A stretch of 64,000 nucleotides of DNA from an uncultured Acidobacteriota bacterium (GCA_963762995.1 CAVXMQ010000018.1:418481-482480); one strand, 5' to 3'; shown: positions 7,873 through 29,133, numbered from the stretch's first letter. Notes: generated by a model not told the origin, from the letters alone. Translations and numbers: made by a program.

Positions 7873-8069
7873 AGGAAGCCGTCTCGCTCCCCGCCCGGAT
7901 TCTGTGGAACGCGTTCTTCTGGACCTACGAACGCGCGACCTGGCAGTACGACGTTATGGTGGTCGCCATCCTCGCGTTCGTCTGGCTCACGCCACCCGAC
8001 TGGCTGAAGGATCCGATGGCGACGGGCGAGGGACCCATTGGGTGGATCCTGGCAATGCTGAATGCTTAA
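7869..8069 (+). CDS. Small hydrophobic protein, unknown function
   Basis: 66-aa ORF whose ATG overlaps the upstream stop (ATGA). One hydrophobic segment (VMVVAILAFVWL). The last 6 codons and the TAA lie in the left arm of the 8051-8145 hairpin. Confidence 0.4.
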   Translation: MKEAVSLPARILWNAFFWTYERATWQYDVMVVAILAFVWLTPPDWLKDPMATGEGPIGWILAMLNA

Positions 8070-8145
8070 TGCTGAATGCTGAATTGAAGGGGAAATGAGG
8101 CAATTGAACCCATTCAGCATTCAGCATTCGACATTCAGCATTGCC
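8051..8145. repeat. Long hairpin built from AATGCTG heptamer words (34-nt arms, 27-nt loop); candidate bidirectional terminator
   Basis: Left arm ggcaatgctgaatgcttaatgctgaatgctgaat (8051-8084). The reverse complement of the right arm (8112-8145) is ggcaatgctgaatgtcgaatgctgaatgctgaat: 31/34 match. It lies between convergent stops at 8069 and 8150. Confidence 0.75.
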
Positions 8146-8149
8146 ACTG

Positions 8150-8704
8150 TCAAGCAAGGTCGCGCTCGTCGTGGTCTCCGAGATCGAGTGATTTGTCGGT
8201 GAAGTGGATGTCGTGGGCGGCGATCTTGTCTCGCAGCACGCGGCGGGCCTCGCCGTAATAGCGCTTCGGGACGGTCAGGAGGCGGCCGAAATCCCTGAAC
8301 CGGTCGAGCAGCACCAGCGTCAGGTGGTGCTCCCCTTCCCGCCAGCTGATCCCGCCGATGTTCGCGTAGGGCACGAAGCCGCCATCTGCCCAGATCCCAT
8401 CCTCGTAGAAGCCGCGACCGATCTTCAGGCTCGCAGGAACCAGATATCCGAAGTACAGGAGCATCATGCATTCCGGGAACACCGCCTCGGGGTGCCAGCG
8501 CAACACCGCGAGCTTGTAGGCGATCAATACGCTGAGGATCGCGCCGAGCCCGAGCAGCAACAGGTAATGCGGCGGCTTGCGCCCCGGCCAGGTCAGCACC
8601 GCGGATGAGCGCAGGCGGAAAAAACGGATGAACTGGAAAAGCAGACGGAGGTTGGCGATCAGGAAGCCGACGCCGAAGACAAAAAGGATCCGGGAAAGAT
8701 CCAT
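8150..8704 (-). CDS. Hypothetical membrane protein
   Basis: 184-aa ORF, two to three N-terminal TM segments, then a soluble domain. Codon usage is consistent with neighbours. No family recognised. Confidence 0.55.
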   Translation of the reverse strand: MDLSRILFVFGVGFLIANLRLLFQFIRFFRLRSSAVLTWPGRKPPHYLLLLGLGAILSVLIAYKLAVLRWHPEAVFPECMMLLYFGYLVPASLKIGRGFYEDGIWADGGFVPYANIGGISWREGEHHLTLVLLDRFRDFGRLLTVPKRYYGEARRVLRDKIAAHDIHFTDKSLDLGDHDERDLA

Positions 8705-9313: not shown

Positions 9314-9877
9314 CTAGGCGCGGGAGAGGTACTCGCCGCTCTCGGTGCTCACACGGATCGTGTCGCCGGGATTGATAAACGGCGGGACGTTCACGACGAG
9401 GCCCGTTTCCGTCGTGGCGGGCTTGATCTGGTTGCTGGCCGTCGCTCCCTTGATCCCCGGCGCGGTGTCGGTGACCTTGAGGTCCACGGTCACGGGCAAC
9501 TCGATGCCGACCGGCTCGCTGCCGTAGAACTCCACGGCGATCACCGAGTCGGGCTTGATGTAGTTCACCGCGTCGCCCAGCACCTCGGAGGACATGTGGA
9601 TCTGCTCGTAACTGTCCGTGTCCATGAAGTGGTAATCGTCGCCGTCCTTGTAGAGGTACTGCATCTGCTTCTCGTCCAGGATGGCGCGTTCGACGGTGTC
9701 TTCCGACCGCAGCTTCTGGTCCGAGAGCGACTGCGTGCGGATATTGCGGAACTTGGCCCGCACGAACCCGCGCAGGTTCCCCGGCGTGACGTGTTGCAAC
9801 TCGAGCACCCTCATCAGATCGTCGCCGATCTTGATCAGCATGCCCTTCTTCATTCTCGTGGCGTTAATCGAGCTCAT
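9314..9877 (-). CDS. efp: Translation elongation factor P
   Basis: 187-aa ORF. EF-P blocks VTPGNLRGFVRAKFRNI and KPATTETGLVVNVPPFI. Abuts the tdk start with no gap. Confidence 0.95.
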   Translation of the reverse strand: MSSINATRMKKGMLIKIGDDLMRVLELQHVTPGNLRGFVRAKFRNIRTQSLSDQKLRSEDTVERAILDEKQMQYLYKDGDDYHFMDTDSYEQIHMSSEVLGDAVNYIKPDSVIAVEFYGSEPVGIELPVTVDLKVTDTAPGIKGATASNQIKPATTETGLVVNVPPFINPGDTIRVSTESGEYLSRA

Positions 9878-9892
9878 TAACTTCCTTGCACT

Positions 9893-9994
9893 GGCCGGGT
9901 CTAAAGACCCGGCCCTACATGACGGGTCGTTGCCGGGTCTAAAGACCCGGCCTACGTACAGATAACGGTCGTAGGCCGGGTCTTCAGACCCGGC
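9893..9994. repeat. Cluster of three REP-like palindromes GCCGGGTCT(AA/TC)AGACCCGGC; copies 2 and 3 form an inverted pair (BIME-like)
   Basis: Copies at 9893-9914, 9932-9956 and 9970-9994. Copies 2 and 3 each carry the CCTACG extension in opposite orientation around a 13-nt centre. Further copies lie at 20588-20607 and 29661-29684. Confidence 0.8.
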
Positions 9995-10050
9995 GAACGG
10001 TACAACCCTCGAATGGTACCAGCGATTAAACGCGGATTACAATCGAAGGG

Positions 10051-12276: not shown

Positions 12277-12878
12277 GGTCGGCGAGACACGGCAGCGGAG
12301 TCGGTGGAGTAGCAGCGCCATTCCTGTTCAACCCCCACGTTGATGCCGATGCGGCGGCTCCAGGCGATTTCGGGGGTGGGCAGATTGGCGTCCTCGATTC
12401 GGAGGCTGGAGCCCACGAGGTCTTTGAGATTCTGACGCAGTGAAATGCCCAGCGCGCGCGTCAGGTTGCCGGGGCCTCGGCAGAGTGCGGCGGACTCGTA
12501 GGACGCGGCCGTTTTCCCCGTTCCTTTCGCGCGGCGCCGGCGCATCAGCGCCTCTCCCTCGAATGGCTCCAGTGCGCGGATCAACACGGCCGCCGGCCAC
12601 CCTTCGGCTTCGGTCACGGCGTTCACCAGGTAGTGGATGCCGTAATTGAGGTAGACGTAGGCGAGGCCCGGTGGGCCGTAGAGGGGCGCGTTGCGCGCGG
12701 TCGGCCCCGGCGCCGCGTGGCAGGCGGGATCGGACTCGCCGATGTAGGCCTCGGTTTCGACGATGATGCCCGAGGTGAGGCCGGCGGGCGCGTCGTGCAC
12801 GAGGACCTTGCCAATGAGCTCGCGCGCGACGACCAGTGTCGGCCGCCCGTAGAAATCGCGTGGAAGCCTACGCGCCAC
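12228..12878 (-). CDS. mpg: DNA-3-methyladenine glycosylase (Mpg/AAG family)
   Basis: Blocks FYGRPTLVVARELIGKVL, IVETEAY, DPACHA, LAYVYLNYGIHYLVN, LCRGPGNL. Start placed at GTG 12878 because upstream codons overlap the HEAT gene. The last ~10 codons are encoded by the right inverted repeat of 11637-12276. Confidence 0.8.
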   Translation of the reverse strand: MARRLPRDFYGRPTLVVARELIGKVLVHDAPAGLTSGIIVETEAYIGESDPACHAAPGPTARNAPLYGPPGLAYVYLNYGIHYLVNAVTEAEGWPAAVLIRALEPFEGEALMRRRRAKGTGKTAASYESAALCRGPGNLTRALGISLRQNLKDLVGSSLRIEDANLPTPEIAWSRRIGINVGVEQEWRCYSTDSAAVSRRPTATGRFTEDQKIRRK

Positions 12879-14071
12879 GCAGCTTGATGCGCTCGATCGC
12901 CCGTTCGGCGGCGGTGCGGACGTCCACGTCGCGATCCGCAAGAAGCGCGGCGAGCGCGGGGATGTGCTCCTGGGTCCCGACAACCCCGAGGATCAGCGCG
13001 GCATTGCCGCGCACGGCCTTGTCGGGATCCTGTAACCGTTGCACCAGTTCAGGGGCGACGGTCGGCCCGAGTTCGATCAGGTACTCGGCCACCTGCGCGA
13101 CGGCCTTGTCGTCGCGGAGCATATTCACCAGCTGCCCGCTGTAGTCCTGGCCAAGCTTCACGAGCGCGAACGCCATGGCCGCGCGCACCATTCCCGAGGA
13201 GTCCTTCACCACCCCGGCTTCGAACGCAGGAAGCTCTGACGTATCTCCGACCCGGCCGAGGCCCTCCGCGGCCGCGCGACGGATGTACTGATCGCGATCC
13301 GCGAGACGCGACTTGAAGAGCGGCACGCTCGACGGATGGGCGATTTTCGCCAGGGCATCGAGCGCCGACCACGCCCCCTCGCCGCGCCCGTAATGCTCGA
13401 CCAGCTTGGTGAGCGATTCCACCGCGGCCGTTTCGCGGATGTCGCCCAACGCGCGCATGGCCGCGAATCGCACCGGCTGCTGCGAGTCGTTGACCGCCTT
13501 GATCAGCTCTTTTCCAGCCGAAGTCACCTTGAGCCGTCCGACGACGCGCGCCGCCGCGGTCCTGATCGCGGGATCGTAATGGTCCAGGGCCTTGATCAAC
13601 TGCGGTGCGGCATCATCCGGCAGCGGCGGCTGCGCGATCGAGCCGAGTGCATAGATCGCCTCGATCCTCACCTTCGGATTCTCGTCGTCCACGGCCTTCA
13701 GGAGCCCGGTGATCAGCTCTCGGGGCACCGGGCGAGGCCAGACGGCGAGAGGCCCAGCGCTGAATGCGGTCTCGGCCCTCCCCCCGCCGCTGCGCGTCTC
13801 GATGATCAAGGCGACGTACTTGCGCGCCTTGACGTCCCGCACCAGGAAGAACGACAACTCCGGTGCCGATCGCCTCGAGCTGGACGTGGTCGAGGGGATC
13901 GTTGACGAGCGGAGCGATCGGCAGGATCGCTTCTTCGTAGCGCGACTCCCTCAGCAACTTGAGCGCTTCCATGCGCGCGTCCGGATCGGGGTTCCGCAGG
14001 TTCCGCACGACGTCGTCATAGCGCGCCTGCTGCGTCGCCAGCGCCAAGACGATCAATATGACTAGTTGCAT
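12868..14071 (-). pseudogene. Secreted HEAT/PBS-lyase-type repeat protein, one frame break (or assembly indel)
   Basis: ORF 13613..14071 supplies the N-terminus (MQLVILIVLALATQQA, then NPDPDARMEALKLL). ORF 12868..13857 supplies repeated D..VR..A..ALG HEAT-like units. The frames differ by one surplus base near 13855-13870. Confidence 0.7.
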
Positions 14072-14085
14072 AGAGCCCTCTCGAG

Positions 14086-14209
14086 CAGTGGGGTTGCTCG
14101 GGGCGACTCGGAAACTTAGAACTTAGAATTTAGAACTTAGAACCAATGGTTCTTAGTTCGGAGTTCGTAGTTCTAAGTTTAAAAGCCGCCCGAATCACCC
14201 CTTTGCCCC
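14086..14209. repeat. About 125-bp palindromic element: AGTGGGGTTGCTCGGGG head plus TTAGAAC heptamer arms
   Basis: Arms aaacttagaacttagaatttagaacttagaacca (14112-14145) and tggttcttagttcggagttcgtagttctaagttt (14147-14180), 28/34 complementary. The head cagtggggttgctcggggcgactcgg recurs at both ends of the 20486-20730 element. It lies directly 3' of uvrA. Confidence 0.75.
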
Positions 14210-14211
14210 TA

Positions 14212-17177
14212 TCAGCTTTGTCGCGACGCATAGGCGTTAGAGCGGCCGACGGCCAGCACGTCGCGCAGGTAGCGTCCGGTGTGCGAATGCTCGGCCTGGC
14301 CGATCTGCTCGGGTGTTCCGATCGCAACGATCTCTCCCCCCTCGGCGCCCCCTTCGGGGCCGAGATCGATGATCCAGTCGGCCGTCTTGATCACGTCGAG
14401 GTTGTGCTCGATGACGAGCAGCGTGTGGCCGGCTTGCAGGAGCTTCCTGAACGCGGCCAGGAGCTTCGCGATGTCGTCGAAGTGCAATCCGGTCGTCGGC
14501 TCGTCGAGGATGTAGAGCACGCGATCCCCGGTGTTCGACGACAGGTGCGCCGCAATCTTGATGCGCTGCGCTTCCCCGCCCGACAGCGTGGTCGCCGGCT
14601 GACCGAGGCGCAGATAGCCAAGGCCGATCTCATCCAGCACCTGCAGGCGCCGGAGGACTTTAGGTGACGAGGCAAAGAACGCCAGCGCTTCGCGCACCGT
14701 CATGTCGAGCACCTGGTCGACGCCGCGGCCGCGATACTTGACGTCGAGCACCGTCGACTTGAACCGTTTGCCCTCGCACTGATCGCAGGGAACGAAGACG
14801 TCCGCCAGGAACTGCATCTCGACCTTGACGACCCCTTCACCCTCGCACGCTTCGCAACGGCCGCCGGGAACGTTGAAGGAGAAGTGGCTGGCGGTGAGTC
14901 CGCGCGACCGCGAGTCCTTGGTCGCCGCGAAGAGCTCGCGGATCGGATCGAAGGCCTTGAGATAGGTCACCGGGTTCGAACGCGGGGTGCGGCCAATCGG
15001 GTTCTGGTCGACCAGCACCACGTCGCTGACGAACTCGTGGCCTTCCAGCTTGTGGTGGGAGCCGACCCGACGGTCCCAGTCCCCTTTTGCCCGCTTGAGG
15101 GCCGCGTAGATAACGTCGTGGACCAGCGTGCTCTTGCCCGAACCGCTGACACCGGTGACGCACGTCAACACGCCGAGCGGAATGTCGACGTCGACGTCCT
15201 TCAGGTTGTGCTCGGTGGCGCCGAGAACCCGGATCTTTTGCGCGATCGGCTTCCGGCGGGTGGCCGGCACCGGAATGGCCAGCTCATCGCGAAGGTACTT
15301 CGCCGTCAGCGATCGCGGCTCGTTCAACAGGCCCGAAAGCGGTCCGCTGAAGATGACGCGTCCCCCCTGCTCCCCGGCGCCGAGGCCCATGTCGACGACC
15401 GCATCCGCGACCCTGATCATGTCGGCGTCGTGCTCGACCACGAGGACCGTATTCCCCTGGTCGCGCAACTTGCGCAGGATCTTGATCAACCGCTCGTTGT
15501 CGCGCGAGTGGAGCCCAATCGACGGCTCGTCCAGCACGTAGAGCGTATCGACGAGCGCCGAGCCGAGCGACGTCGCCAGGTTGATGCGCTGCGACTCGCC
15601 GCCCGACAGCGTGGACGAGAGCCGATCGAGCGTCAGGTAGTCGAGGCCAACGTCGCGCAGGAACCCAAGACGCCGGCGGATCTCCGCAAGGATCTTCTCG
15701 GCAATCGCGGTTTCCTTCTCGGTCAGCAGCAGTTCTGTAAAAAAGGCCTCCGCTTCGCGCACGGTCAGCGCCGAGACCGCATCGATCGTGCGGTCGCCGA
15801 TACGCACGTCGCGCGCCTCGCGGCGCAGCCGCGCCCCGTTGCATTCCGGGCACGTCAAGTAGCCGCGGTAGCGGCTGAGGAACACGCGGACGTGCACCTT
15901 GTATTTCTTCCGTTCCAGCCAGCGGAAGAAGCCCTTCACGCCGTCGTAGGATGCCCCGCCCGGCCCTGAGCTTGCGGAAGGGCTGGTCGAAGGACTCGCC
16001 TTCAATGACAAACGTGCGTTCCTCGTCGGTGAGCTGCGACCAGGGCACGTCGAGGCGCACGTTGCCCTGCTTGGCGGCGCGCTTCAACTCGGCGAGCTGC
16101 GCGCGGTAGTGCGGCTTGCTCCATGGCTCGATGGCGTTCTGTTGCAGCGACTTCGACGGGTCGGGCACGACCAGGGCCATGTCGAGCTCGATCACGTTGC
16201 CAAAGCCATGGCACACCGGGCAGGCGCCGAAGGGGTTATTGAACGAAAAGAGCCGCGGTTGCGGGATCTGGTACTGGATGTTGCACGGACGGCATTCGAA
16301 GCGCTCGCTGAACTCGTGCGTCCGGGAGGCCTGCCCCTCGAGCAGCTCGATCGCGAAGGCCGCGCCCCCACCTTCTTGATAGGCCGTTTCGATCGAATCG
16401 GTGAGGCGGGTGCGCATGTCCCCTTCGAGCTTCAGGCGGTCCACGATCACCTGGAGCGAAGTGCAGTCCACGCAGAATCGCCGGATCGATATCCTCGAGC
16501 GTGACGGCGGCGCCATCGATGAGCAGGCGCCCGAAGCCTTTCCGCCGCAGGGCCGCCAGCGTTTCGGCCATCGGGTCCACGAACTCGGGAAGCGGCTGCT
16601 GGGGCGCGGCCGCGTCCTCGATCGCTTGCTCCTCGGCGTCTTCCTCCTCGACTTCCCGGGTGACCGGGTGAGACACCACGGTCACCACCGGCATCTCGAA
16701 CCCGATCAGAAGACGCGCGCCGGCCGGAAGCTCTCCCAGCCGGCGGGCGACGACCTCGGCCGTCTCACGGATCACCTCGCGTCCACAGCTCCGGCAGAAC
16801 GTCCGACCCACCCGGGCGTAGAGCAGCCTCAAGTAATCGTGAATCTCCGTCGTCGTGCCGACCGTAGAGCGGGGGTTTCGGATGCTGTTTTTCTGACGGA
16901 TGGCGATCGCGGGACAGATGCCCTCGATGCTCTCGACGTCCGGCTTTTCCATCCGTTCGAGGAACTGCCGGGCATAGGCCGATAACGACTCGACGTACCG
17001 GCGCTGCCCCTCGGCATAAATGGTGTCGAAGGCGAGCGACGACTTCCCCGACCCGCTGACGCCGGTCATGACGACCAACGACCTCGGCGGGATGGTGAGG
17101 TCGACGTTCTTGAGGTTATGCGTGCGCGCCCCGCGGATGACGATCTGCCCGCGGCGCGACTCGGTGTTAGTGGCCAT
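14212..17177 (-). pseudogene. uvrA: Excinuclease ABC subunit A, two frame breaks (or assembly indels)
   Basis: Read in three consecutive frames. 17177 to about 16472: [34 protein letters not shown]. About 16472 to about 15960: CPVCHGFG zinc module, VIVDRLK. About 15960 to 14212: [58 protein letters not shown]. Each junction needs one base skipped. Confidence 0.9.
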
Positions 17178-17342
17178 GTACGGTAACGATCTTTCGAAGA
17201 ACCTGAACAGGCCATAGTAGCCGCTACGGCGAGGTGCCTTCAACCTCTGGCGCGGAAACCGTGCTATTTTGATTGCCACTTTCCGGGTGTTCCCGGGGGC
17301 TGGTCCCCGAAGCGATCACCGGATTCCCTGGAAGAGGGGGCT

Positions 17343-17972
17343 GTGTCAGTTCGTCTGTTTATCGGTAACCTGCCTTATGCGGCTTCTGAGGCAGAGTTGC
17401 GAGAGCACCTGTCGAGTGTCGGGGAACCCGCCCAGATCGTTCTTCCCGTAGACCGGGAAACAGGCCGGCCGCGCGGCTTCGCATTCGTGGATTACACGGA
17501 GCGGAACGTCGCGGAAGAGGCTATCCGGCGATTCAATCAGCAACCATTCAAGGGGCGTCCGCTCGCGGTCAGCGAAGCGCGCCCGCGCGAAGAGCGTCCG
17601 CCCGGCCCGCGGCCCGGCGGCTTCAGCGGTCCCCGACCCGGAGGTCCGCCGAGCGGCCCCGGCGGCGGAGGATTCGCCCCGCGCCCCGGCGGCTTCTCGC
17701 CGCGGCCAACCGACGGTGGCGCTCCCGGCTCGCGCAGCCGGAACTTCGGGCCCGACGCCCCGCCGAAGAACAAGCGCAAGCCCCAACGGAAAGACGAAGG
17801 CCGTCCCAAGGGTCCGATTAAGGCTCGCCCGGTAACGACGCTTTACGACGAAGACGAAGACTGGCGCGCCAAGGACGAGGACGTGGACATCGATAACGTC
17901 GCAACGAGCAAGGCCGAGGCGGAGGCGGAGGCCGAGGCCGACCAGGTCGAAGACGACGACAAGGAGCAGTAA
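17343..17972 (+). CDS. RRM-type RNA-binding protein with long Gly/Pro-rich and acidic tail
   Basis: 209-aa ORF. RNP2 LFIGNL and RNP1 RGFAFV in the first about 80 aa, then PGPRPGGFSGPRPGG... and a KAEAEAEAEADQVEDDDKEQ tail. Confidence 0.85.
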   Translation: MSVRLFIGNLPYAASEAELREHLSSVGEPAQIVLPVDRETGRPRGFAFVDYTERNVAEEAIRRFNQQPFKGRPLAVSEARPREERPPGPRPGGFSGPRPGGPPSGPGGGGFAPRPGGFSPRPTDGGAPGSRSRNFGPDAPPKNKRKPQRKDEGRPKGPIKARPVTTLYDEDEDWRAKDEDVDIDNVATSKAEAEAEAEADQVEDDDKEQ

Positions 17973-18361
17973 TGCTGACGCACGTGAAGGTGCTGGCGGT
18001 CCTCTACATCGTGCTGGGCGCGCTGGGCGTGCTCAGCGCACTGTTGTTGATGATGGTGTTCGGCGTAGCGGCTGGAAGCGTTGGGGTCTCAGGAGATCCA
18101 GACGCGGCGGTTGCGCTCCCCATCATAGGTTTCGTCGGGACCGGGCTGTTCATCTTCCTCCTGGCCATCTCGCTGCCTGGCGTGATCGTGGGTTTCGGAC
18201 TGCTCAAGCTGAAGTCCTGGGCCCGGATCGGGGGCATCGTGCTGTGCGCGATCAACCTGATCAATATTCCGATCGGCACGATCCTCGGCGCGTACGGGCT
18301 CTGGGTTCTCCTGAATGGAGAAACGGAACGCCTGTTCGCCAGCACGCCAGTCCACGTCTAG
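17972..18361 (+). CDS. Hypothetical 4-TM membrane protein
   Basis: 129-aa ORF whose ATG overlaps the upstream stop (TAATG). Four hydrophobic segments. Confidence 0.6.
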   Translation: MLTHVKVLAVLYIVLGALGVLSALLLMMVFGVAAGSVGVSGDPDAAVALPIIGFVGTGLFIFLLAISLPGVIVGFGLLKLKSWARIGGIVLCAINLINIPIGTILGAYGLWVLLNGETERLFASTPVHV

Positions 18362-18402
18362 ACGGCGCCGAGTAGCGCACAGCTCTTGCATACCTGGCGG
18401 CA

Positions 18403-19327
18403 ATGTCCCATGAGGACGCTGCCGCCAGTTCGTTCGTTCCGCCCGTCAGTTCTCCCCGCTCGCACACCTCCACCGATCAGTGGCAGAGCTTCGAGATGCG
18501 CATGCGCCGTCGTCGCGCGGAGCGATGTGCGTTGCGCGCGGAAGTTGCGCTCGAGGCCGGCTTCCCCGATGACGCGCGAGAGGCGCTCGACGAAGCCCGC
18601 CGCCTCGACGCCTCCATCGTTGAGTTCGACGTCCTTCAAGCTCTCGTCGCGGAGCGCCAGGCCGCGTTGGGTCGGGACCAGCGGGCGCGCCGCATCCGTC
18701 GCGTGAGTGTCGCGGCCGTACTGCTTCTCGCGGTTACGGGGACAGGGGTCTGGCTCGACGCGCTCCCGGTTCCAGGTTCCAGGTTCCCGGTTCCCACCTC
18801 CGCGCTCACGCGCTACGGCGGGCCAAGCCGAAGCCCCGAGTCCCGAGCCCCCGACCTCCGCGCTGAAGCGCTACGAAGGAAGAGCCCCGAATCCCGGGAA
18901 CCGGGAACCGGGAACCTGGAACCGAGAGCGCGAGGAGCTGCCCTCGCTCCCGAGCGCGACTGTCTTGACGCACGTCACGCTGCCCGCTGTCTCGAGTCCC
19001 GAGCCACCATTGCCGGCGGTCGCGCAGCCACTGAACGAAGGGCCGCCGGGGTCGGTGGACGAAGGCCCCCGGGTGCGCACCGCGCTCGCTCGCTACGAGG
19101 CGGCCTACTCCACACTGAGCGTGTCGGCCACGCAAGAGCTGCAGCGGCTGTCGCTGGGCCAGTGCACCGTCGCGATCGATGGTGCGGCCGCACGAGCCGA
19201 GTGCAATGGCACCGCGACATGGACGCCCAAGATTGGCGGCGGCTCGCGCACGGAATCGCGCAACTGGCGATTCGAGCTGAAGAACGCCGGCGGCGAATGG
19301 CAGGTCGTCCGCGCCGAAGCGCGTTAG
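18403..19327 (+). pseudogene. Membrane-anchored protein with low-complexity linker and C-terminal globular (possibly NTF2-like) domain, one frame break inside a repeat element
   Basis: The frame of ORF 18403.. is convincing up to the TM segment VSVAAVLLLAVTGTGVWL. The frame of ORF 18707..19327 is convincing from ELPSLPSATV to the stop (ALARYEAAYSTL...WRFELKNAGGEWQVV). The switch lies between 18797 and 18855. Confidence 0.55.
18768..18923. repeat. Heptamer-word inverted-repeat element (GGTTCCA/GGTTCCC arms) embedded in a coding region
   Basis: Left arm ggttccaggttccaggttcccggttccc (18768-18795). The reverse complement of the right arm (18896-18923) is ggttccaggttcccggttcccggttccc: 27/28. Interior has two direct copies of cctccgcgct(ca/ga)(c/a)gcgctacg and NCCCGAG words. 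Confidence 0.75.
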
Positions 19328-19358
19328 AAGCTGACGGCCGTCATCACGAGCCCGAACA

Positions 19359-19375
19359 GCAGAGGTCGCCTCTGC
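19359..19375 (+). terminator. Hairpin GCAGAGG-TCG-CCTCTGC after the 18403..19327 gene
   Basis: Perfect 7-bp stem 32 nt after the stop. No clear U-tract follows, so function is uncertain. Confidence 0.3.
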
Positions 19376-19378
19376 GAG

Positions 19379-20455
19379 TTGGGCGTGTTAGAATTGAGTC
19401 CTCCAGCGGAACACACTTTGAGTAATCTCCTTCGCCACTCTCATCGGCGCCTGCGTGAGCTTTGTCTGCTCGTCCTCCTGCTGGCGACGACGAGCGGCTG
19501 CGCCAGCCACTACCGCCTCGCCCCGGCCGCCGCCGCGTTGTCCGATGCGTCGTTCGGCGTCAGCTGGCTCACCCCCTCCCTGGAAACCGATGCTCGAACG
19601 CTTGCCCGGTGGCGAGCCGGCGTCGGTCAACCCCTGGTGGCCTCGAGTAGCCGGGCTGCGGCTCCCGAGTCGATCGAGGGCCTGACGATCGTCAGCTGGA
19701 ACATCGCGCTGGGAGCTGGCGACGTCGCCGAGCTGTTCAAGCGACTCCAGCAAGCCCGGCCGAATCACGCCGTGGTGCTGTTGCTCCAGGAAGCGTTTCG
19801 CGCCGGCGAGGATGTGCCGCGCACCCCGATGAACGCCGCGTTTGCGGGAAGGCTTCGGTGCGCCTCGGGCCGCGAGATCGACGACCTCGCGCGGGCGCTC
19901 GACCTGTGGATGTACTACGTGCCGTCGATGCGCAACGGCGCGCCGGGAATCTCAGACGAGGACCGCGGCAATGCGATCCTCTCGACCATACCACTCGAAG
20001 ATCTCGTCGCAATCGAGCTGCCCTTCGAGCGGCAGCGCCGCGTGGCGGTCGCGGCCACGGTGCGCGGACGAACCGGCGAGGGAGAACCGTGGAAGCTCCG
20101 CGTCGCCAGCGTGCACCTCGACAACATGGCCGGCCTGAGCCGCGGGTGGATCGGCGGCGAGTACGCCCGCGTGCGGCAGGCCCGGGGACTTCGAGAAGCC
20201 CTCGGCGGATCGGATCCGCTGGTGCTCGCCGGCGACTTCAACACCTGGTTTGGCTTCACCGACGCCGCCTACGTGGAAACCGCCCGCGCCTTTCCCCAGA
20301 CCCGCGTGAGCGACCAGCGCCGGACCTTCCTCGGCCTCATGCGTCTAGACCACGTCTTCTACCGCTTACCGGCGAGTTGGCGCACGGACGTCCGCCGCGC
20401 CGACACCGCCCACGGCTCCGACCACCACCCGCTAATCACCACGATCGCGTTCTGA
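19379..20455 (+). CDS. Endonuclease/exonuclease/phosphatase (EEP) family protein, probable lipoprotein
   Basis: 358-aa ORF. LLLATTSGC lipobox-like N-terminus. EEP blocks IVSWNI, LLLQEA, LAGDFNTW, GSDHHPL. Exact start uncertain. Confidence 0.75.
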   Translation: MGVLELSPPAEHTLSNLLRHSHRRLRELCLLVLLLATTSGCASHYRLAPAAAALSDASFGVSWLTPSLETDARTLARWRAGVGQPLVASSSRAAAPESIEGLTIVSWNIALGAGDVAELFKRLQQARPNHAVVLLLQEAFRAGEDVPRTPMNAAFAGRLRCASGREIDDLARALDLWMYYVPSMRNGAPGISDEDRGNAILSTIPLEDLVAIELPFERQRRVAVAATVRGRTGEGEPWKLRVASVHLDNMAGLSRGWIGGEYARVRQARGLREALGGSDPLVLAGDFNTWFGFTDAAYVETARAFPQTRVSDQRRTFLGLMRLDHVFYRLPASWRTDVRRADTAHGSDHHPLITTIAF

Positions 20456-20485
20456 CGTACCTCGAGTTACCCGGGTGTCTCGGAC

Positions 20486-20730
20486 AGTGGGGTTGCTTGC
20501 GGCGGCTAGAAAACTAAGAACTACGAACTTAGAACTAAGAACGATCTTGTGGAACGCCTCGCGGCTGCGCCGCTCGGCATCGTTAGAGCCGGGTCTAAAG
20601 ACCCGGCACGACATCTCCACATTGGACCTAACTAAAGAGGGCCGACGCGCAGCGTCGGCCCTTCAACAAAATCGTTCTAAGTTCTTACTTCGTAGTTCTT
20701 AGTTTTCGAGTCCCCCCGAGCAACCCCACT
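20486..20730. mobile_element. MITE-like 245-bp element: about 60-nt terminal inverted repeats (AGTGGGGTTGCT.. head plus TAAGAAC words) around a 125-nt core
   Basis: Left 20486-20545 agtggggttgcttgcggcggctagaaaactaagaactacgaacttagaactaagaacgat versus reverse complement of right (20671-20730) agtggggttgctcggggggactcgaaaactaagaactacgaagtaagaacttagaacgat. The core holds a REP copy (20588-20607) and the hairpin gggccgacg-cgcag-cgtcggccc. No ORF. Lies between convergent genes. Confidence 0.65.
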
Positions 20731-20756
20731 CCCCAACAACGCCCGGCTCTCGCAAA

Positions 20757-21854
20757 TCACTTACAGCCCTGCGCGGACAGAATGCCGTCGAGCAGCTCGC
20801 GAAACTGCGTGCCTGAAACGCTGCGGTTCTGGGCCGGGGACCGTCTTGTGGACGACGACCATGTCGCGCTGCGGGAGAACCGTGATGTATTGGCCGACCG
20901 CTCCCTGTCCGGTATAGGCGCCGGCATACGGTCCGGTCGCCGCGGGTCCGTCCCAGATCCACCACAGGTAGCCATAACCGAATGGCCCCTTGCGGTGACG
21001 CTCCGGGTTCATCTGCGTGACGGGAGTCACGACGCTGGAGATGCGGCGCGCCCAGTCGCGGGGCACGATCTCCTGCCCGTTCCACTCGCCGTTGCGCAAC
21101 ATCACGTAGCCGATCCTCGCCATGTCGCGCGTGGAGAAGTTCATGTGATACGCCAGGTGGATCGACCTGGCCCGATCGCCACTGCGATTGTGCGAGGCGC
21201 GATCGAAGTCGCGCATGCCGATCGGGCGCGCCAGGTCCCTCTCGAGCGCGTCGTAAATGCCCTGCTTCGTCTCCTGTTCGAAGATCGTGCCGAGGGCATT
21301 GAAGTCCCAGTTGCTATAGAGGTAGTAGGTGCCGTGCTTCTGCGAGCCGCGCGGCGGCGCCGACGCGAGGTCGTCGCCGCGTTCGACGCTTCGTGATACA
21401 CGCCTGACCGCGCGCCGAGAAGATCCGCGATCGTCGCTTCCTTCTCTGACGGCAACAGCCCGCCGTGATCGTCGATCCCCAGCTCGGCGAGCGTCTTGTC
21501 CACCTTGATGGTGCCGTTCTTCACGTACTTCCCGAACAACATCGCCAGGACGCTCTTCCTCACCGAGGCCAGGTAGCTGACTGCCGTGACGTCACCGTAC
21601 TCATAGAGCACGCGGCCACCGACGATCGCCATGATGGCGGTCGTCGAGAACCCCTTCGCCCGCGCCGTCACGAGATCCAGCTTGTCAGCGCAATACCCGA
21701 CCGTCTTTGGATCGGCAATGCGCTCCCACTCCGCGCCGGGAAAAATTCCCGATGCTGTCCGCGTCGCGGCGACGGGCGTCGATGTCGGCTCATGGCTCGC
21801 GCAGGCCGCCGCGATGAGACCCGCGAGCAGAAGACCGGAGAGAAGCCGTTTCAT
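20757..21854 (-). pseudogene. Serine hydrolase (beta-lactamase/transpeptidase-like), two frame breaks (or assembly indels)
   Basis: ORF 21141..21854: signal/lipobox (LIAAACAS) and SxxK (SVRKS). Continues in the frame of ORF 20761..21216 (YYLYSNWDFNALG, GYGYLWW) after a one-base deficit near 21375-21385. The true C-terminus (NRSVSGTQFRELLDGILSAQGCK) is in the frame of ORF 20757..20975 after a surplus base in a C-run near 20836-20840. Confidence 0.8.
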
Positions 21855-21884
21855 GACATGGCATAATGATGCTTCTCCACGCTC

Positions 21885-24800
21885 ATGGCAATCTCCTCCG
21901 GCTCCCGAATTGGTCCGTACTCAGTGCTGAGCACGCTCGGACTGGGTGGGATGGGTGAGGTCTATCGCGCTCGCGATCCGCGCCTGGGGCGTGACGTTGC
22001 CGTCAAGCTGATTCGAAAATCCGCGCACGACCAGGAAGGCGCACTCGACCGGCTGCTTCGAGAAGCCACGCTCGCCTCCTCGCTCAACCATCCAAACATC
22101 GTCACGATCTACGACACCGGCGTCGTCGGCGCCGACCGTTACGTGGCCATGGAGCTCGTCGAGGGGACGACGCTTCGCAAGCTGGCGGCGAACGGGCTGC
22201 CGGTGGAGCGCGCCGTCCAGATTGGCCGGCAGGTCGCGGAAGCGCTCGCCGTCGCGCATGCCGCCGGGATCGTCCACCGCGACATCAAGCCCGAGAACAT
22301 CGTCGTCCGTCCCGACGGATACGTGAAGCTGCTCGACTTCGGCCTGGCGCGCCAGCACGAAGTGGCCGCGGCTTCCGCCACGTTGCCCGGCACCGGACCC
22401 GGCACCGATCCCGGAATGGTGATCGGCACGGTCGGCTACATGGCGCCCGAGCAGGCCCGCGGAGAGGTTGCGGCGCCTGAGGCCGACATCTTCGCGTTCG
22501 GCGCCGTCCTGTACGAGCTCTTCGCGGGGCGCCACCCCTTCATCTCCACGTCCCAGCTCGCGACGCTGCACGCGCTGATGTGGGAGACGCCGGAACCACC
22601 CGCGTTGCTGAATCCGGAGTTGCCGCGCACGCTCGATCAACTGGTGATCGAGATGCTGCAGAAGGATTCGCGCCTGCGACCGGGCGCGAGCGAAGTGCTG
22701 CTCCGCCTGGGCCTCGTGCACGACTCCACCGTGGCGGCGGCGCTGTCGTCGATCGCGGTCGTCCCGCGTACGCTCCACACCTCGCGCGCCGTCGTCGGGC
22801 GCGATAACGAGATGGAGGTCCTGTACCACGAGTTCGACCGCGCCAAGGGAGGCAAGAGCCGGCTGGTCATCGTCTCGGCAGAAGCCGGTGTCGGCAAGAC
22901 GACGCTGGTCGAGACGTTCGTGCGCTCGCTGGACGAGCATGGCGAGCCTGTACGCGTCGGCCGCGGTCGCTGCTCGGAGCGGCTCGCAGGCACGGAAGCC
23001 TATCTCCCGGTGCTCGAGGCGCTCGAAAGCCTGCAGAACCACGATCAGCTTGGCAGCATCACGCGGCTCATACGTGCGGTGGCGCCGAGTTGGTATGTGC
23101 AGATCACGCCACCGTCGAGCAACGACTCCTCTGCCGCGCGTCTCGTCGCGGAAACAGCGGGAGGTTCGCAGGAGCGCCTGAAGCGCGAAATCGCGGCCCT
23201 CCTCGAAGAAGCGGGCCGCGTGCAGCCGGTCATTCTGTGGTTCGACGACGTGCACTGGGCGGATGAATCGACGACCGACCTGCTGTCGTACCTCGCCCAA
23301 CGCACCGAAGGCACGCGTGTGTTGATCATCGTGACCTGCCGCGCCTCCGACCTGGCGCAGGCCCGTCACCCCTTCCTATCGGTGCGCCTCGAACTCCTCG
23401 CTCACGGAGCGTGCCGGGAATTGACACCGGGACCACTCGACGTGGCCGCGATCGATCGTTACGTTTCACTGCAGTTCCCCCAGCATGGGTTCCCGAGCGG
23501 CATCGCGGAATTGATCCACCGCCGCACCGAAGGGCATCCCCTGTTCGTCGCCGACTTGCTGCGCGAGCTCCGTCGGCGGCACGTGATCCGCCAACTGGAC
23601 GGGCGGTGGACGATGACGGGCGATCTCGCGGCGCTCGAGCGCGAGCTGCCGGCGTCGGTCAGGAGCCTGATCCAGCGCAAGATGGAGGCGCTCGACGATG
23701 TGGACCGCCGGCTCCTCGGAGCCGCGAGCGTGCAGGGTGCCGACTTCGACACGCTGGCGCTGGCCGGCGCCCTCGGCATGGGAGAAGAAGATGTCGAGTC
23801 GCGCCTCGAGCGGATCGAACGCGAGCACGCGCTCGTGCGCTTCGCCGAGGAAGAAGAAACTCGCAACCGCCTGCTGACGCTGCGCTATCGCTTCTCGCAC
23901 CAGGTCTACCAGAACGCCTTCTACGAATCGCTGCGCGTCACGCGGCGCGCAGCGTTCGCTCGCGCGATCGCCGAGCAACTGGTCGGGCGGATGGCCAGCG
24001 AGCCGTGCGAATGTGCGGCCAGCGTCGCGATCCTTTACGAGACCGCGCGCGAGAACATCAAGGCGGCGGAGTACTTCAACCACGCCGCGCAGGCGGCGGC
24101 GCGGCTTTACGCACACGACGAGACGGCCAAGCTGGCGCAGCGCGGCCTGAGCCTGCTGACATCGGAGCCACCGAGCCCGGCGAGGAACGCCGCCGAACTG
24201 TCCCTGCAGATGTCCTACGGCCTGGCGCTGAAGACGAGCCGCGGCTATGCCGTGCCGGAAGTGGGCGCCGCGTATGCGCGCGCCCGCGACCTGTGCCGCC
24301 AGGTGGACGATCCCGGGCGCGTCGTCCCCGTGCTCATGGGGCTCTCAGCGCATCACATCGTTTCGGGCGAGATCGAGACCTCGCGCGACGTGTCGCTCGA
24401 GATGGTCGATCTCTTCGCCCGCCTGGGCGATCCGAACCTGCAGATGCTCGGGAACTGGGCCATGGGGGCCGCGCTCTTCCATCTCGGCGAGCTCCAGGCG
24501 GCGCAAACGCACCTCACGCGTGCGTTGGAGATGTACGACCCGGCGTTCCACGGCCCCCGCGTCTGGGAAACCGGGATCGAGCCGGGCGTCTTCTCGCGCT
24601 GCGAGCTGTCGCGGATCCTGTTGTTGCGCGGCTATCCGGACCAGTGCCTGGCGATGATGAGCGAAGCGGTCGCGCAGGCGCGGGCGCTCGAACATCCGCA
24701 ACCGCTCGCCTTCGCGCTGATGTTCCTGTGTATTGCGCACCTTGGCCGTCGCGATCCCGCGTCGGTGCTCGCCACCTACGACGAGCTCGACCAGATTTGC

Positions 24801-25340
24801 CGCGCCCATGGCATCGCGCAGGAGCTGCAATGGGCGGGTCCGCTGCGCGGCCGTGCGCTCGTCGAGCTCGGCGATGTCGATCGCGGCCTGCGCGAGATGG
24901 AAGAGTCGCTCGCCGCCCACACCCTGACGCGATCGGCCCTGCTGCGTCCGTACTACTTTGTGCTCTACGCCGGCGCGTTAATCCGCGGCCAGCGCTTCCA
25001 GGATGCCTGGCGGGCACTCGACGAAGCGCAGGATGTGACTGAAGAAACCTCGCAACGCGCCTACACCTCCGAGCACCAGCGGCTGCGCGGCGAGGTGCAG
25101 GCGGCACTCGGCGATCCGGCGGCCGCGGAGGCGAGCTTCCTGAACGCGCTCCGCATCGCCCGCGAGCAGGGCGCCACCTGGCTCGAGTTGCGTGCCGCAC
25201 GCGGCTATGCCAATTACCTTGCGGCGCGCGGCCGCATTGAGGAGGCCCGAGCGATGCTCGCGCCCGTGGCCGCCTCGATTACCGAGGGGCACCGAACACT
25301 CGATTACCTCTATACCGACGCGCTGCTGAAGACCTTCTGA
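21885..25340 (+). CDS. Ser/Thr protein kinase fused to AAA/STAND-type ATPase and TPR-like repeats
   Basis: 1151-aa ORF. Kinase motifs GLGGMGEVY, VAVK, HRDIKPEN, DFG, GYMAPEQ. P-loop SAEAGVGKTTLV. Long helical-repeat C-terminus. Confidence 0.9.
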   Translation: MAISSGSRIGPYSVLSTLGLGGMGEVYRARDPRLGRDVAVKLIRKSAHDQEGALDRLLREATLASSLNHPNIVTIYDTGVVGADRYVAMELVEGTTLRKLAANGLPVERAVQIGRQVAEALAVAHAAGIVHRDIKPENIVVRPDGYVKLLDFGLARQHEVAAASATLPGTGPGTDPGMVIGTVGYMAPEQARGEVAAPEADIFAFGAVLYELFAGRHPFISTSQLATLHALMWETPEPPALLNPELPRTLDQLVIEMLQKDSRLRPGASEVLLRLGLVHDSTVAAALSSIAVVPRTLHTSRAVVGRDNEMEVLYHEFDRAKGGKSRLVIVSAEAGVGKTTLVETFVRSLDEHGEPVRVGRGRCSERLAGTEAYLPVLEALESLQNHDQLGSITRLIRAVAPSWYVQITPPSSNDSSAARLVAETAGGSQERLKREIAALLEEAGRVQPVILWFDDVHWADESTTDLLSYLAQRTEGTRVLIIVTCRASDLAQARHPFLSVRLELLAHGACRELTPGPLDVAAIDRYVSLQFPQHGFPSGIAELIHRRTEGHPLFVADLLRELRRRHVIRQLDGRWTMTGDLAALERELPASVRSLIQRKMEALDDVDRRLLGAASVQGADFDTLALAGALGMGEEDVESRLERIEREHALVRFAEEEETRNRLLTLRYRFSHQVYQNAFYESLRVTRRAAFARAIAEQLVGRMASEPCECAASVAILYETARENIKAAEYFNHAAQAAARLYAHDETAKLAQRGLSLLTSEPPSPARNAAELSLQMSYGLALKTSRGYAVPEVGAAYARARDLCRQVDDPGRVVPVLMGLSAHHIVSGEIETSRDVSLEMVDLFARLGDPNLQMLGNWAMGAALFHLGELQAAQTHLTRALEMYDPAFHGPRVWETGIEPGVFSRCELSRILLLRGYPDQCLAMMSEAVAQARALEHPQPLAFALMFLCIAHLGRRDPASVLATYDELDQICRAHGIAQELQWAGPLRGRALVELGDVDRGLREMEESLAAHTLTRSALLRPYYFVLYAGALIRGQRFQDAWRALDEAQDVTEETSQRAYTSEHQRLRGEVQAALGDPAAAEASFLNALRIAREQGATWLELRAARGYANYLAARGRIEEARAMLAPVAASITEGHRTLDYLYTDALLKTF

Positions 25341-25490
25341 CGTGCTACGTGCTACGGGCTGACGTGCGACGTGCTGACGTGCTCACGTGCTACGTGCATG
25401 ACGTGCTAACGTGCGACGTGCGACGTGCGACGTGCGACGTGCGACGTGCGAACGTGCGACGTGCGACGTGCGACGTGCGACGTGCGACGG
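25339..25490. repeat. Tandem array of GACGTGC(T) words (8-nt variants, then 5+1+5 near-perfect GTGCGAC heptamers)
   Basis: Starts inside the kinase stop codon. 25411-25488 is gtgcgac x5, gtgcgaac, gtgcgac x5. It is the reverse-complement word set of the 25725-25838 array. Confidence 0.9.
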
Positions 25491-25496
25491 AGAGTG

Positions 25497-25736
25497 ATGC
25501 CAGAACACGTGCTTGCGGTGCAGGTGGAGTGCTACGCCGGCTACATGGGCGAGCAGACCCCGCGTGTCATCCAGCTCGGCGAACAACGCATCCAGGTCGC
25601 CGAACTCCTCGACCAGTGGCTCGCCCCCACCCACCGCTACTTCAAGCTGCTCGGCAAAGACGGCCACACCTACATCGTCCGCCACGACACCGTGTCACAC
25701 GCCTGGGAGCTAACGATGTTCAGTCGCAGCACGTAA
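25497..25736 (+). CDS. Small hypothetical protein (79 aa) exactly filling the space between two inverted heptamer arrays
   Basis: ATG 25497 is preceded by GGAG (25489-25492). MPEHVLAVQVECYAGYMGEQTPRVIQLGEQRIQVAELLDQWLAPTHRYFKLLGKDGHTYIVRHDTVSHAWELTMFSRST is non-repetitive with balanced composition. The TAA lies in the first unit of the right array. Confidence 0.5.
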   Translation: MPEHVLAVQVECYAGYMGEQTPRVIQLGEQRIQVAELLDQWLAPTHRYFKLLGKDGHTYIVRHDTVSHAWELTMFSRST

Positions 25737-25838
25737 GCACGTCAGCACGGCACGTCAGCACAGCACGTCAGCACGTGAGCACGTCGCACGTGTGCACGTC
25801 AGCACGTGGCACGTCAGCACGTAGCACATAGCACGTTA
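25725..25838. repeat. Tandem array of (A)GCACGTC words, inverted relative to 25339-25490
   Basis: agcacgta agcacgtc agcacg gcacgtc agcac agcacgtc agcacgtg agcacgtc gcacgtgt gcacgtc agcacgtg gcacgtc agcacgt agcacat agcacgt. It ends about 14 nt before the GGAGG of the tricorn-like gene. Confidence 0.9.
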
Positions 25839-25863
25839 GAATGAGCCCTCCCCGGAGGTTTTG

Positions 25864-28800: not shown

Positions 28801-29133
28801 GTCACCAACCAGCACTCGCTCTCGGACGCGGAGGACTTCACCGAAGGCTATCGCACGCTACGCTTGGGTAAGGTCGTCGGTGAACCGACCTCCGGCTGGA
28901 TCATCTACACCGGCAGCCAGACGCTGGTGGATGGATCCTCCATGCGGATGCCGGGAACGCGCATCACCTCGCTCGACGGCACCACGATGGAGCTGAACCC
29001 GCGCAAGGTGGACGTCCCCGTCACCCGTCCGATCGGCGAGAGCCTGACGGGCAAGGACAGCCAGTTGGACACGGCCGTCCGTGAGTTGCTTCAGCAACTG
29101 GGCGCTAAGCGCGGCACTACCGCGGTTCGCTGA
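25864..29133 (+). CDS. Tricorn-like protease (beta-propellers + PDZ + S41-type peptidase domain)
   Basis: About 1089 aa from ATG 25864 (GGAGG 7 nt upstream). Signal-like N-terminus, repeated SPDG..(A/L)AF PD40-type blades, a PDZ-like region (GDYVTAVNG), and a C-terminal S41-like block (VLVTNQHSLSDAEDF). Confidence 0.8.
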   Translation: MIRMRSYELVAVGLLSVVALSADIGGQRAADAPRQALPSFAEPAISPDGRELAIVSSGDIWTVPAAGGDARLLIAHDANESRPMYSPDGTRLAFVSDRTGGGDIYVLTLATGALARVTFDDGLDRLDGWSRDGAWIYFSSSSRDIAGMHDIFRVRAAGGTPMAVSADRYTSEFFAAPAPDGRRVAFSARGNGVGQWWRNGSSHLDESEIWLLHDGDQPKYEQLTERGAKQLWPMWSGDGKSLFYVSDRGGRQNVWTLTLGGQPRQVTRFNDGRVLWPTITSDGKTIAFERDFEIWTLDTASGRAAQLAISRRGLPAGPAVDHLTLNNGFQDLELSPDGRKVAFTARGEVWAASARDGGDAVRVTRTSARESQVAWLPDSRRIVYVSERDNVPHVFAYDFTTSKETQLTNAATGDSGLRVSPDGKSLAFVRDGKELRVMDIEAKTDRALASGHIVRSDRGLAWSPDSKWIAYLGLSGASFRNVYAVPAAGGTSRAVTSIPNGNANNVSWSPDGTYLIYNTNQRTEPSQTVRVDLILRTPRFREDRFRDLFRDEPTRTPPAERRPEGETAPRRESAAPPRDPAKPVEIVFEDIRRRVSILPVGVEVSTQTFSPDGRSLLLTATAAGQQNLYLYSMDELAREPAVARQLTSTAGNKSDAQFTADGREVFYLEQGRISVIPVESRQARAVSVNAEMDIDFSQEKMEVFRQAWTYMRDGFYDDKFHGVNWQAVRSRYEPRVAAAQTSDELRRLLNLMVGELNASHLGVSGGRGGGGRGGESPASARLGLRFDRAAYERNGHLKVTEVIALGPAAITRQISAGDYVTAVNGTPVTADVNLDALLVRGVDRRTVLTVAAQPAATDTREVIVRPVTQGTEKNLLYRQWVEWNRAYVDKASGGRLGYAHMNDMSEGALQRLYLDLDAENRVKDGVVIDVRNNNGGFVNAYALDVLSRRGYLMMTPRGLPMAPARSVLGQRALELPTVLVTNQHSLSDAEDFTEGYRTLRLGKVVGEPTSGWIIYTGSQTLVDGSSMRMPGTRITSLDGTTMELNPRKVDVPVTRPIGESLTGKDSQLDTAVRELLQQLGAKRGTTAVR

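Follow-up and report, generated by a model that had tools for sequence, protein, structure and literature searches.

Two palindromic features in a 64,000 nt stretch of DNA from an uncultured Acidobacteriota bacterium (GCA_963762995.1, CAVXMQ010000018.1:418481-482480), the whole of which is here called the window, are probably copies of one lineage-restricted, non-coding palindromic repeat family of the Vicinamibacterales. Element 1 lies between uvrA and a gene for a HEAT-repeat protein, and element 2 lies between a gene of the Exo_endo_phos family and a gene of the beta-lactamase family. Comparison of the window with related contigs and metagenomic loci showed that the family is dispersed, non-coding and hairpin-forming. 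Its copies insert a few nucleotides 3' of stop codons, remain at a site over substantial divergence and gain and lose core modules, and the core has been inverted. Copies also change by internal deletion, down to a remnant made of the two termini. A copy is built of two inverted arms of ~75 nt that have between them either nothing or a mosaic of a segment named module A, repetitive extragenic palindromes (REPs) with a GTAG tag, and terminators made of a hairpin plus a T-run.

An initial annotation of the window had proposed that both features share a head sequence and heptamer arms, and this was confirmed. The 12 nt head AGTGGGGTTGCT is found exactly at 14087 (+), 20486 (+) and 20730 (-), and GAACTNNGAACTNNGAAC, a GAACTNN array, has ten matches with no more than one mismatch, all of them within the two elements; 0.01 matches were expected in shuffled sequence in each case. 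The parts of the two elements are as follows, with E values from a hidden Markov model (HMM) of the arm.

14072-14211, no strand: element 1, the hairpin form; all of the DNA between the HEAT start codon and the uvrA stop codon
14087-14115, + strand: element 1 left head AGTGGGGTTGCTCGGGGCGACTCGGAAAC (arm HMM E 1e-18)
14116-14143, + strand: element 1 left arm, four heptamers TTAGAAC TTAGAAT TTAGAAC TTAGAAC
14149-14176, - strand: element 1 right arm, four heptamers, reading TTAGAAC TACGAAC TCCGAAC TAAGAAC on that strand
14177-14209, - strand: element 1 right head, degenerate, reading GGGGCAAAGGGGTGATTCGGGCGGCTTTTAAAC on that strand (arm HMM E 1e-17)
20461-20753, no strand: element 2, the form with a core, at its full paired extent between the Exo_endo_phos stop and the beta-lactamase-like stop
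20461-20485, + strand: element 2 outer inverted repeat, left, CTCGAGTTACCCGGGTGTCTCGGAC; pairs with 20731-20753, and this adaptor is also in L043, L044, L055 and L077
20486-20542, + strand: element 2 left head and four heptamers TAAGAAC TACGAAC TTAGAAC TAAGAAC
20543-20587, + strand: core module A, a 45 nt GC-hairpin module (GATCTTGTGGAACGCC..GCGGCTGCGCCGC..CGTTAGA), also in L051, L052, L072, L077 and L078
20588-20607, no strand: REP copy GCCGGGTCTAAAGACCCGGC in the element 2 core; family members at 9892, 9930, 9973 and 29659 are GTAG-tagged
20638-20662, - strand: GC hairpin followed by a T-rich tail, terminator-like and oriented for the beta-lactamase-like gene; inverted in L044
20674-20730, - strand: element 2 right arm, four heptamers and head
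20731-20753, - strand: element 2 outer inverted repeat, right

The arms of element 1 (14091-14145 and 14147-14201) are 75% complementary and only 1 nt apart, and the RNA is predicted to fold at -61.7 kcal/mol on the + strand and -65.8 kcal/mol on the - strand (z -6.9 and -8.7 against shuffles). Element 1 is one long hairpin 3' of uvrA, as first described, but it is also 5' of the co-directional HEAT-repeat gene, and its location is thus not simply an operon end. In element 2, arms of 69 nt (20486-20554 and 20662-20730) that are 86% complementary lie 107 nt apart and enclose a core with a REP and a GC hairpin. The ends first assigned to this element were too short, as pairing spans 20461-20753 and fills the whole space between the two convergent stop codons. 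The predicted RNA fold of the entire intergenic region is -166 and -180 kcal/mol on the two strands (z -15.6 and -12.8). An additional inner inverted repeat of ~12 nt (GATYTTGTKGAA) is carried by the arms. Neither element 1 nor the outer stem of element 2 forms a GC-rich stem-loop with a U-tract directly after it on the transcribed strand; the inner hairpin at 20662-20638 (-) does, being followed by a T-run. The sole open reading frame (ORF) fully inside either element is an 89-codon stop-to-stop frame (20436-20702, +) with a GC3 of 0.52 and no coding-type bias. When the elements were compared with Rfam covariance models, no match reached the gathering score and only sub-threshold chance matches (E 0.35-0.67) were returned.

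When metagenomes were scanned with the pattern AGTGGGGT-N12-22-AAACTWMGAACTW, 21 loci were returned. Twelve of them have 32-48% GC and no heptamer arrays and were set aside as chance matches. The other nine (L046, L047/L061, which are a single weak site, L051, L052, L053, L055, L063 and L065) have 60-66% GC and do contain heptamer arrays; one of them, L051, belongs to the Vicinamibacterales according to its cyanophycinase homologs. At least seven of the array-bearing sites, which come from soil metagenomes, are distinct and non-orthologous. As uvrA, Exo_endo_phos and their neighbours were found in none of the nine, these are other genomic sites, and further copies of the head, one of the checks that the initial annotation set out, thus exist. 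Each of the seven new sites was sampled once and the two sites known from the window were never re-sampled, which implies many sites across the clade. An attempt to find the empty counterpart of the L051 site via cyanophycinase homologs gave no comparison, because upstream synteny was not conserved. The L051 contig (OEOX01000001.1) ends, at 9700-9800, in a pUC-type vector (lacZ-alpha and polylinker) and is a cloned metagenomic insert from which the vector was not trimmed.

Across 24 aligned arms a common order was found, namely a flank ending in CGARC, then AGTGGGGT, ~13 variable bases, CT-NRAAAC, four heptamers and GATYTKGTGGAA. Arms of different elements resemble each other almost as closely (0.74, reaching 0.95 between loci) as do the paired arms within an element (0.80); the left arm at site 2 of the window (the position of element 2) is 95% identical to the right arm of L051. 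The first 35-45 nt of the core, which constitute module A, are common to site 2 of the window, L051, L052, L072 and the site 1 copies (those at the position of element 1) of L077 and L078. Independent local origin cannot explain non-repetitive heads of ~30 nt, a unit order and a core module that are shared by unrelated loci.

The 95 heptamer units follow the consensus T(92%)-[A/T/C]-[A/C]-G-A-A-C, in which GAAC was partly enforced by the extraction rule (no more than one mismatch). Of 25 arms parsed, 14 have four units and nine have three, although the parser clipped some of these nine from four. TACGAAC is the usual second unit and TAAGAAC the usual fourth. Given this near-fixed number and positional identity, the array behaves as a conserved 28 nt sequence with a 7 nt period and not as a freely slipping microsatellite. 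The dinucleotide in the heptamers varies by lineage (TA/AA in the window, TC/AC in L077 and L078, CC in L045) and GAAC is kept. Over 29 variable columns, arms agree with their own partner at 0.545 versus 0.462 +/- 0.025 with deranged partners, a value reached in eight of 5000 derangements, and the dinucleotide of the first heptamer matches between the arms in 11 of 12 elements. This co-variation is modest evidence, drawn from aligned arms, for maintained pairing or conversion between arms.

An upstream ORF could be called for 12 copies, and these start 3-30 nt 3' of its stop codon. About six of the 12 have convergent neighbours and four or five have co-directional ones; none has divergent neighbours. 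In L046 (1715-1860), two ends of the family, one right and one left, adjoin each other (GAGTTYT arrays, head, AACTAAR arrays), directly upstream of a uvrB start. A connection to LexA and the SOS response, considered because copies lie beside uvrA and uvrB and GAAC/GTTC could be half-sites, was rejected, as a 7 nt period cannot give 11 nt spacing and most copies are beside unrelated genes; the LexA box reported for Acidobacterium is GTTC-N7-GTTC. Integron attC sites (RYYYAAC/GTTRRRY) were likewise rejected, as the heptamers do not fit them and no integrase is nearby.

Orthologous contigs were fetched through the flanking proteins. The Exo_endo_phos proteins of L043 and L044 are 91-95% identical to that of the window, that of L045 is 78% identical, and those of a second clade (L067, L072 and L075) are ~74% identical. 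Presence/absence polymorphism between relatives, another check that the initial annotation set out, was seen at both sites, with filled relatives at 78-94% protein identity and empty ones in the clade at ~74%. The window, L045, L077 and L078 have a filled site 1, and L079 has a minimal copy. In L067 and L075 the site is empty: the junction measures 0-1 nt, and the stop codon of uvrA either overlaps the HEAT start or lies 1 nt from it. Such a junction is very unlikely to be restored by deletion, so the ancestral state in L067 and L075 is the empty one, and element 1 is an insertion. The copies in L077 and L078 (86% HEAT identity) have the ends and arms found in the window plus a 65 nt core of module A, and the window copy is a bare hairpin. 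In L079 (79%), only a 35 nt remnant, TAGGGGCAGTCCACCCCACTGCCCGAGAAGGCTCT, is left, and it corresponds to the two termini. The proposal of one family that exists with and without cargo was thus borne out at a single site, and also by arms up to 95% identical between loci and by the recurrence of module A.

The window, L043, L044, L045, L072 and L077 have a filled site 2. In L067 and L075 this site is empty, and the 23-32 nt between the stop codons hold only a small GC hairpin (GCAGCGGC-TG-GCTGCTGC in L067). Because L072, which is filled, is sister to L075, which is empty, at 86%, at least two gain or loss events have occurred at this site. The L077 copy has been enlarged to ~390 nt and holds two REPs and two hairpins along with an additional right arm. 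Between orthologous copies the arm sequence is 84% conserved, and the flanking protein is 74% identical. In L072 (2074-2108), the beta-lactamase-family gene has lost its native stop codon, and the ORF runs ~11 codons into the right arm to end at a TAA inside a heptamer.

The core of element 2 has been inverted relative to that in L044, a 91% identical relative. In reverse orientation the two cores match at 38 of 40 positions, including the asymmetric flanks of the GC hairpin, versus 22 of 25 in forward orientation, where the palindromic stem alone matches. REP and hairpin have changed places, while collinearity is kept by the genes on either side and by the outer right head. As a consequence, the gene that the hairpin plus T-run faces is the beta-lactamase-family one in the window and the Exo_endo_phos one in L044. 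Elsewhere in the window (25335-25841), ~20 GACGTGC heptamers and their inverted counterpart bracket a conserved gene for 78 aa (25497-25730) that is inverted relative to its orthologs in L045, L067 and L068, with the flanking kinase and tricorn-protease genes collinear. Recombination between the inverted heptamer arms is the simplest explanation for both inversions.

If transcribed, the copies would form very stable stem-loops at the 3' ends of mRNAs, and these may block 3' exonucleases and/or terminate or attenuate read-through, uncoupling the neighbouring genes. At site 1, the element separates uvrA from a HEAT gene to which it appears to be translationally coupled in the empty genomes, and the HEAT gene now has a GAGAGGG of its own. 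The constant GAAC with two free positions per unit may be a sequence-specific recognition site rather than a product of microsatellite slippage. Spread would be driven in trans; the most plausible agent is a single-strand enzyme that recognises hairpins, of the RAYT/TIRYT (Y1 HUH) type, and the alternative is hairpin-templated gene conversion.

Several observations weigh against this account of the family. No direct target-site duplication was found at 12 copies or in the filled/empty comparisons of both sites, the flanks being inverted repeats that continue the palindrome, and no transposase, integrase, RAYT/TIRYT or Y1 gene was found among the ~30 window ORFs scanned. There are only two copies in 64 kb, and the arm HMM found none in 254 kb of related DNA beyond the known sites. 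Similarity between loci could reflect ectopic gene conversion between hairpins and not transposition. Element 1, lacking a U-tract, is not a canonical intrinsic terminator, and assembly indel errors may affect homopolymer runs within the elements. A scan of GTDB genomes with AGTGGGGTTGCTYGSGGSG returned 42 single matches in unrelated taxa, none followed by heptamers and all due to chance; as this pattern fits only three of 24 known arms, its null result says little. The family also had no match in a scan of viral contigs or in a blastn search of plasmids. In favour of the family, an assembly artefact was rejected, as the same elements are present in independent short-read assemblies.

The REP GCCGGGTCTnnAGACCCGGC carries a GTAG tag in four of its five window copies, and the REP cargo is thus probably a nested insertion; both the REP modules and the terminator modules have the look of insertions, nested or accreted, and not of transported cargo. 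Three GTAG-GCCGGGTCTnnAGACCCGGC REPs are clustered at 9892-10003, downstream of efp, and one is at 29659-29689. Units of REPs, BIMEs (bacterial interspersed mosaic elements) and REPINs are imperfect palindromes of 20-40 nt with a GTAG (or CGTC) tag, a description that here suits the nested REP alone. The head of the element itself lacks self-complementarity, and CAGTGG stands at the element's terminus. The GTAG tag is part of the definition of REPs (PMC3733652), and Acidobacteria are not among the host phyla listed in the 2013 survey of GTAG repeats.

Within the preferred reading of a single Vicinamibacterales family, one specific mechanism is that copies are REPIN-like doublets mobilised by a RAYT/TIRYT tyrosine (Y1 HUH) transposase, which we regard as possible but on balance unlikely. 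The lack of target duplication and the hairpin ends fit single-strand Y1 chemistry of the IS200/IS605 kind, and REPs with a GTAG tag are present in the same genome and also within the elements. Like REPs, BIMEs and REPINs, the copies are extragenic just after genes, form inverted doublets that fold as a long hairpin, occur as mosaic clusters with nested REPs and persist for long without target duplication. There are also precedents, as REPs nested inside longer palindromes have been reported, terminal inverted repeat (TIR) families that share the motif GGGGWSAS flank TIRYT genes, and there is an Acidobacteria-specific TIRYT clade (PMC3733652). The site 1 head of L077, GGGGTGAC, fits GGGGWSAS and may be a lead towards a Y1 mechanism, but most heads (GGGGTTGC) do not fit. 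Unlike REPs, BIMEs and REPINs, the family has arms of ~75 nt rather than self-complementary units of 20-40 nt, heads that are neither palindromes nor self-complementary REP units, and a terminus with GTGG and no clear GTAG, and no linked tyrosine transposase or other Y1 gene is among the ~30 ORFs of the window.

A bolder proposal, which we hold to be improbable, is that heptad-armed palindromes are a distinct class of hairpin-seeking mobile DNA that inserts into or next to the small terminator hairpins found 3' of stop codons and is read by a dedicated enzyme via four phased GAAC heptads. The arms would then be a recombination switch that flips a one-directional terminator or, in one case, an entire small gene, giving heritable and reversible control over which of two convergent genes is terminated.

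The initial annotation had called the elements MITE-like, and for the architecture this stands. Correia elements of Neisseria, ERIC, RUP and Nezha, all of them bacterial MITEs (miniature inverted-repeat transposable elements), measure 100-300 bp and are gene-adjacent, with long terminal inverted repeats and both full and internally deleted forms, and their RNA hairpins can affect transcript ends. Like bacterial MITEs, our elements are short and non-coding, have terminal inverted repeats (arms of 55-69 nt, 75-86% complementary) and show presence/absence polymorphism. Classical MITEs are internally deleted derivatives of an insertion sequence (IS) moved by a DDE transposase that acts on the terminal inverted repeats, and such an origin would agree with the small size, the dispersed copies and the repeated subterminal motifs, which are common transposase-binding sites. 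However, unlike MITEs, the elements have arms built of heptads and show no direct target duplication, of TA or any other sequence, at 12 copies or in the filled/empty comparisons. Their strict confinement to positions just 3' of stop codons would also be atypical of DDE elements. No transposase is present among the ~30 window ORFs, no autonomous element with these ends was seen in any fetched locus, and no element with the family ends (CAGTGGGGT..ACCCCACTG) encloses a gene in 254 kb of related DNA; we know of no cognate IS. With neither a target-site duplication nor a transposase, MITE membership is unproven, and we consider a classical MITE origin very unlikely.

Equally doubtful is that the heptad arrays are sites of a DNA-binding protein that reads GAAC every 7 bp, with the elements as protein-bound landmarks (a roadblock, a nucleoid organiser or a partition-like site) and the hairpin secondary. 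The omega repressor, which reads WATCACW heptads, provides a model; GAAC is constant in 95 units while positions 2 and 3 vary, arrays of about four units keep positional identity, and orthologous arms are 84% conserved while a flanking protein is 74% identical. That conservation could equally reflect recognition by a mobilising enzyme, though, and we know of no candidate protein. The arms co-vary modestly, as pairing would give, the post-stop position and mosaic cores better fit RNA or DNA hairpin elements, and other families use unrelated words (AATGCTG, GACGTGC and GGTTCAA).

Least credible is an origin as terminators or mRNA-stabilising hairpins that evolved at each site independently by heptamer slippage and palindrome growth, without copying between sites: copies are always 3' of a gene, the empty sites already have a small GC hairpin (L067), site 2 holds a terminator-like hairpin with a T-run and other heptamer words form similar palindromes elsewhere, but the heads, unit order and module A shared by unrelated loci at up to 95% identity largely refute it, element 1 has no U-tract, and element 1 splits a gene pair that overlaps in the empty genomes. 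The elements do resemble Rho-independent terminators, including bidirectional ones, in their location at gene 3' ends, often convergent, and in the GC hairpin and T-run inside element 2, and differ from them in their stems of 55-140 bp, their AT-rich heptads, the lack of a U-tract after element 1 and a sequence shared by unrelated loci.

Literature searches turned up no account of this family, nor any of heptamer palindromes in Acidobacteria. The initial annotation knew of none either, and this holds for the sequence family but not for the architecture, as the closest published architecture is that of the inverted (GGGANTN)4 pairs of Xanthomonas. The (GGGANTN)n heptamers of Xanthomonas have a modal four units, form 70-75 convergent inverted pairs per genome, are mostly intergenic, lie a mean of 28 nt after the upstream ORF and are not at the same genes in sister species; they were treated as simple sequence repeats (SSRs) that form G-quadruplexes (Rehm et al. 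2015, PMC4692102). Shared with the acidobacterial arms are tandem heptamers with fixed and free positions, about four units, and convergent pairs that can form stem-loops near the 3' end of the upstream ORF. The acidobacterial arrays, found in another phylum, differ in their word, TNNGAAC, which is not G-rich and has no G-quadruplex potential, and in being part of a longer conserved element, which has a head of ~30 nt that is not repetitive and, in addition, outer adaptors and core modules shared between copies. Unlike the Xanthomonas SSRs, their units keep positional identity and are not a free microsatellite. The novelty is therefore in this sequence family and not in its architecture.

The GC content is ~65% across the window. 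Its Exo_endo_phos, HEAT-repeat and other proteins have their closest named homologs in Vicinamibacterales metagenome-assembled genomes (MAGs); no protein on record is identical, the best identity being 94%. On these homologies, the host is a Vicinamibacterales acidobacterium and not a cyanobacterium, and the heptameric short tandemly repeated repetitive (STRR) sequences of cyanobacteria thus serve as an analogy only; this family differs from them in its word, TNNGAAC, and in its host. The genes that neighbour the two elements are as follows.

12868-14071, - strand: HEAT-repeat protein gene, downstream neighbour of element 1; start codon ATG at 14069-14071; one frame change
14212-17240, - strand: uvrA, upstream neighbour of element 1; stop codon at 14212-14214; C-terminal ABC domains on the - strand; two frame changes in the assembly
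19379-20455, + strand: Exo_endo_phos family gene, left neighbour of element 2; stop codon at 20453-20455
20761-21854, - strand: beta-lactamase-family gene, right neighbour of element 2, convergent; stop codon at 20761-20763; frame changes in the assembly

The GAGAGGG of the HEAT gene is a Shine-Dalgarno-like sequence between the end of element 1 and the ATG. Relative to intact orthologs, the 12868-21920 region has frame changes in uvrA (twice), the HEAT gene, the beta-lactamase-family gene and a gene for 344 aa, each of a single base. That several genes are out of frame points to the indel errors typical of long-read assemblies, and the frame changes are probably such errors rather than signs of pseudogenes. 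Gene fragmentation of the same kind was seen in L045.

The Vicinamibacterales rank with the most abundant bacteria of soil, and the dynamics of their genomes have barely been studied. The elements described here suggest that heptamer excess in some bacterial genomes can reflect structured, dispersed palindromes rather than plain microsatellites, that such elements can wedge between translationally coupled genes such as uvrA and its HEAT partner and uncouple them, and that their arms can invert the enclosed DNA, which is a directional terminator here and a small gene at another locus. The head and four GAAC heptads provide a sequence handle for finding the spreading enzyme, and with it acidobacterial MAGs could be annotated for 3' ends and for palindromes that break assemblies. 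Worth following up are the inverted directional terminator and a possible dedicated hairpin-targeting enzyme.

An architecture of heptamers followed by their reverse complements, with other words and heads, was also found in the window at 8050-8146, 18753-18938 and 25335-25841. At 8050-8146, (AATGCTG)4 and (CATTCAG)4 are separated by a 27 nt loop without the AGTGGGGT head, 4 nt from the stop of a gene on the - strand (8150-8704), and L077 has the palindrome, loop included, conserved at its orthologous site (12625-12720). At 18753-18938, a GGTTCCN palindrome (arms of 43 nt, 91% complementary) with inner CCCGAGY arrays lies inside a variable linker of the gene for 344 aa, which encodes a membrane-anchored protein; the alignment to its orthologs stops at 18753 in frame 1 and resumes at 18980 in frame 2. 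CGCGGTT-type arrays extend across two convergent stop codons, those of a tricorn protease gene and a DUF3574 gene (29121-29155), and a CCGAAYY/CCGAATTA array abuts the stop of a DUF885 gene (29709-29779). All period-7 arrays of at least three units are in the first 30 kb of the window, with none in 30-64 kb. In L080 (5772-6085), a GGTTCAA/TTGAACC palindrome family with interspersed TCGCTTCGCTCG fills the convergent junction after a tryptophan dioxygenase gene, and the same junction in L082 (3982-3992) is only 10 nt. L082 also has a CGTTGTY array upstream of a cyanophycinase gene (2190-2225).

The window also contains an island-like segment of 5.8 kb (40027-46053) with no integrase among the ORFs tested. 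It is bounded by tRNA-Thr (40027-40102) and by a 155 bp direct repeat, found at 40056-40210 and 45900-46053 (99-100% identical), that includes the tRNA 3' end, and it carries two methyltransferases, an MFS fragment and a rhodanese/metallo-beta-lactamase protein.

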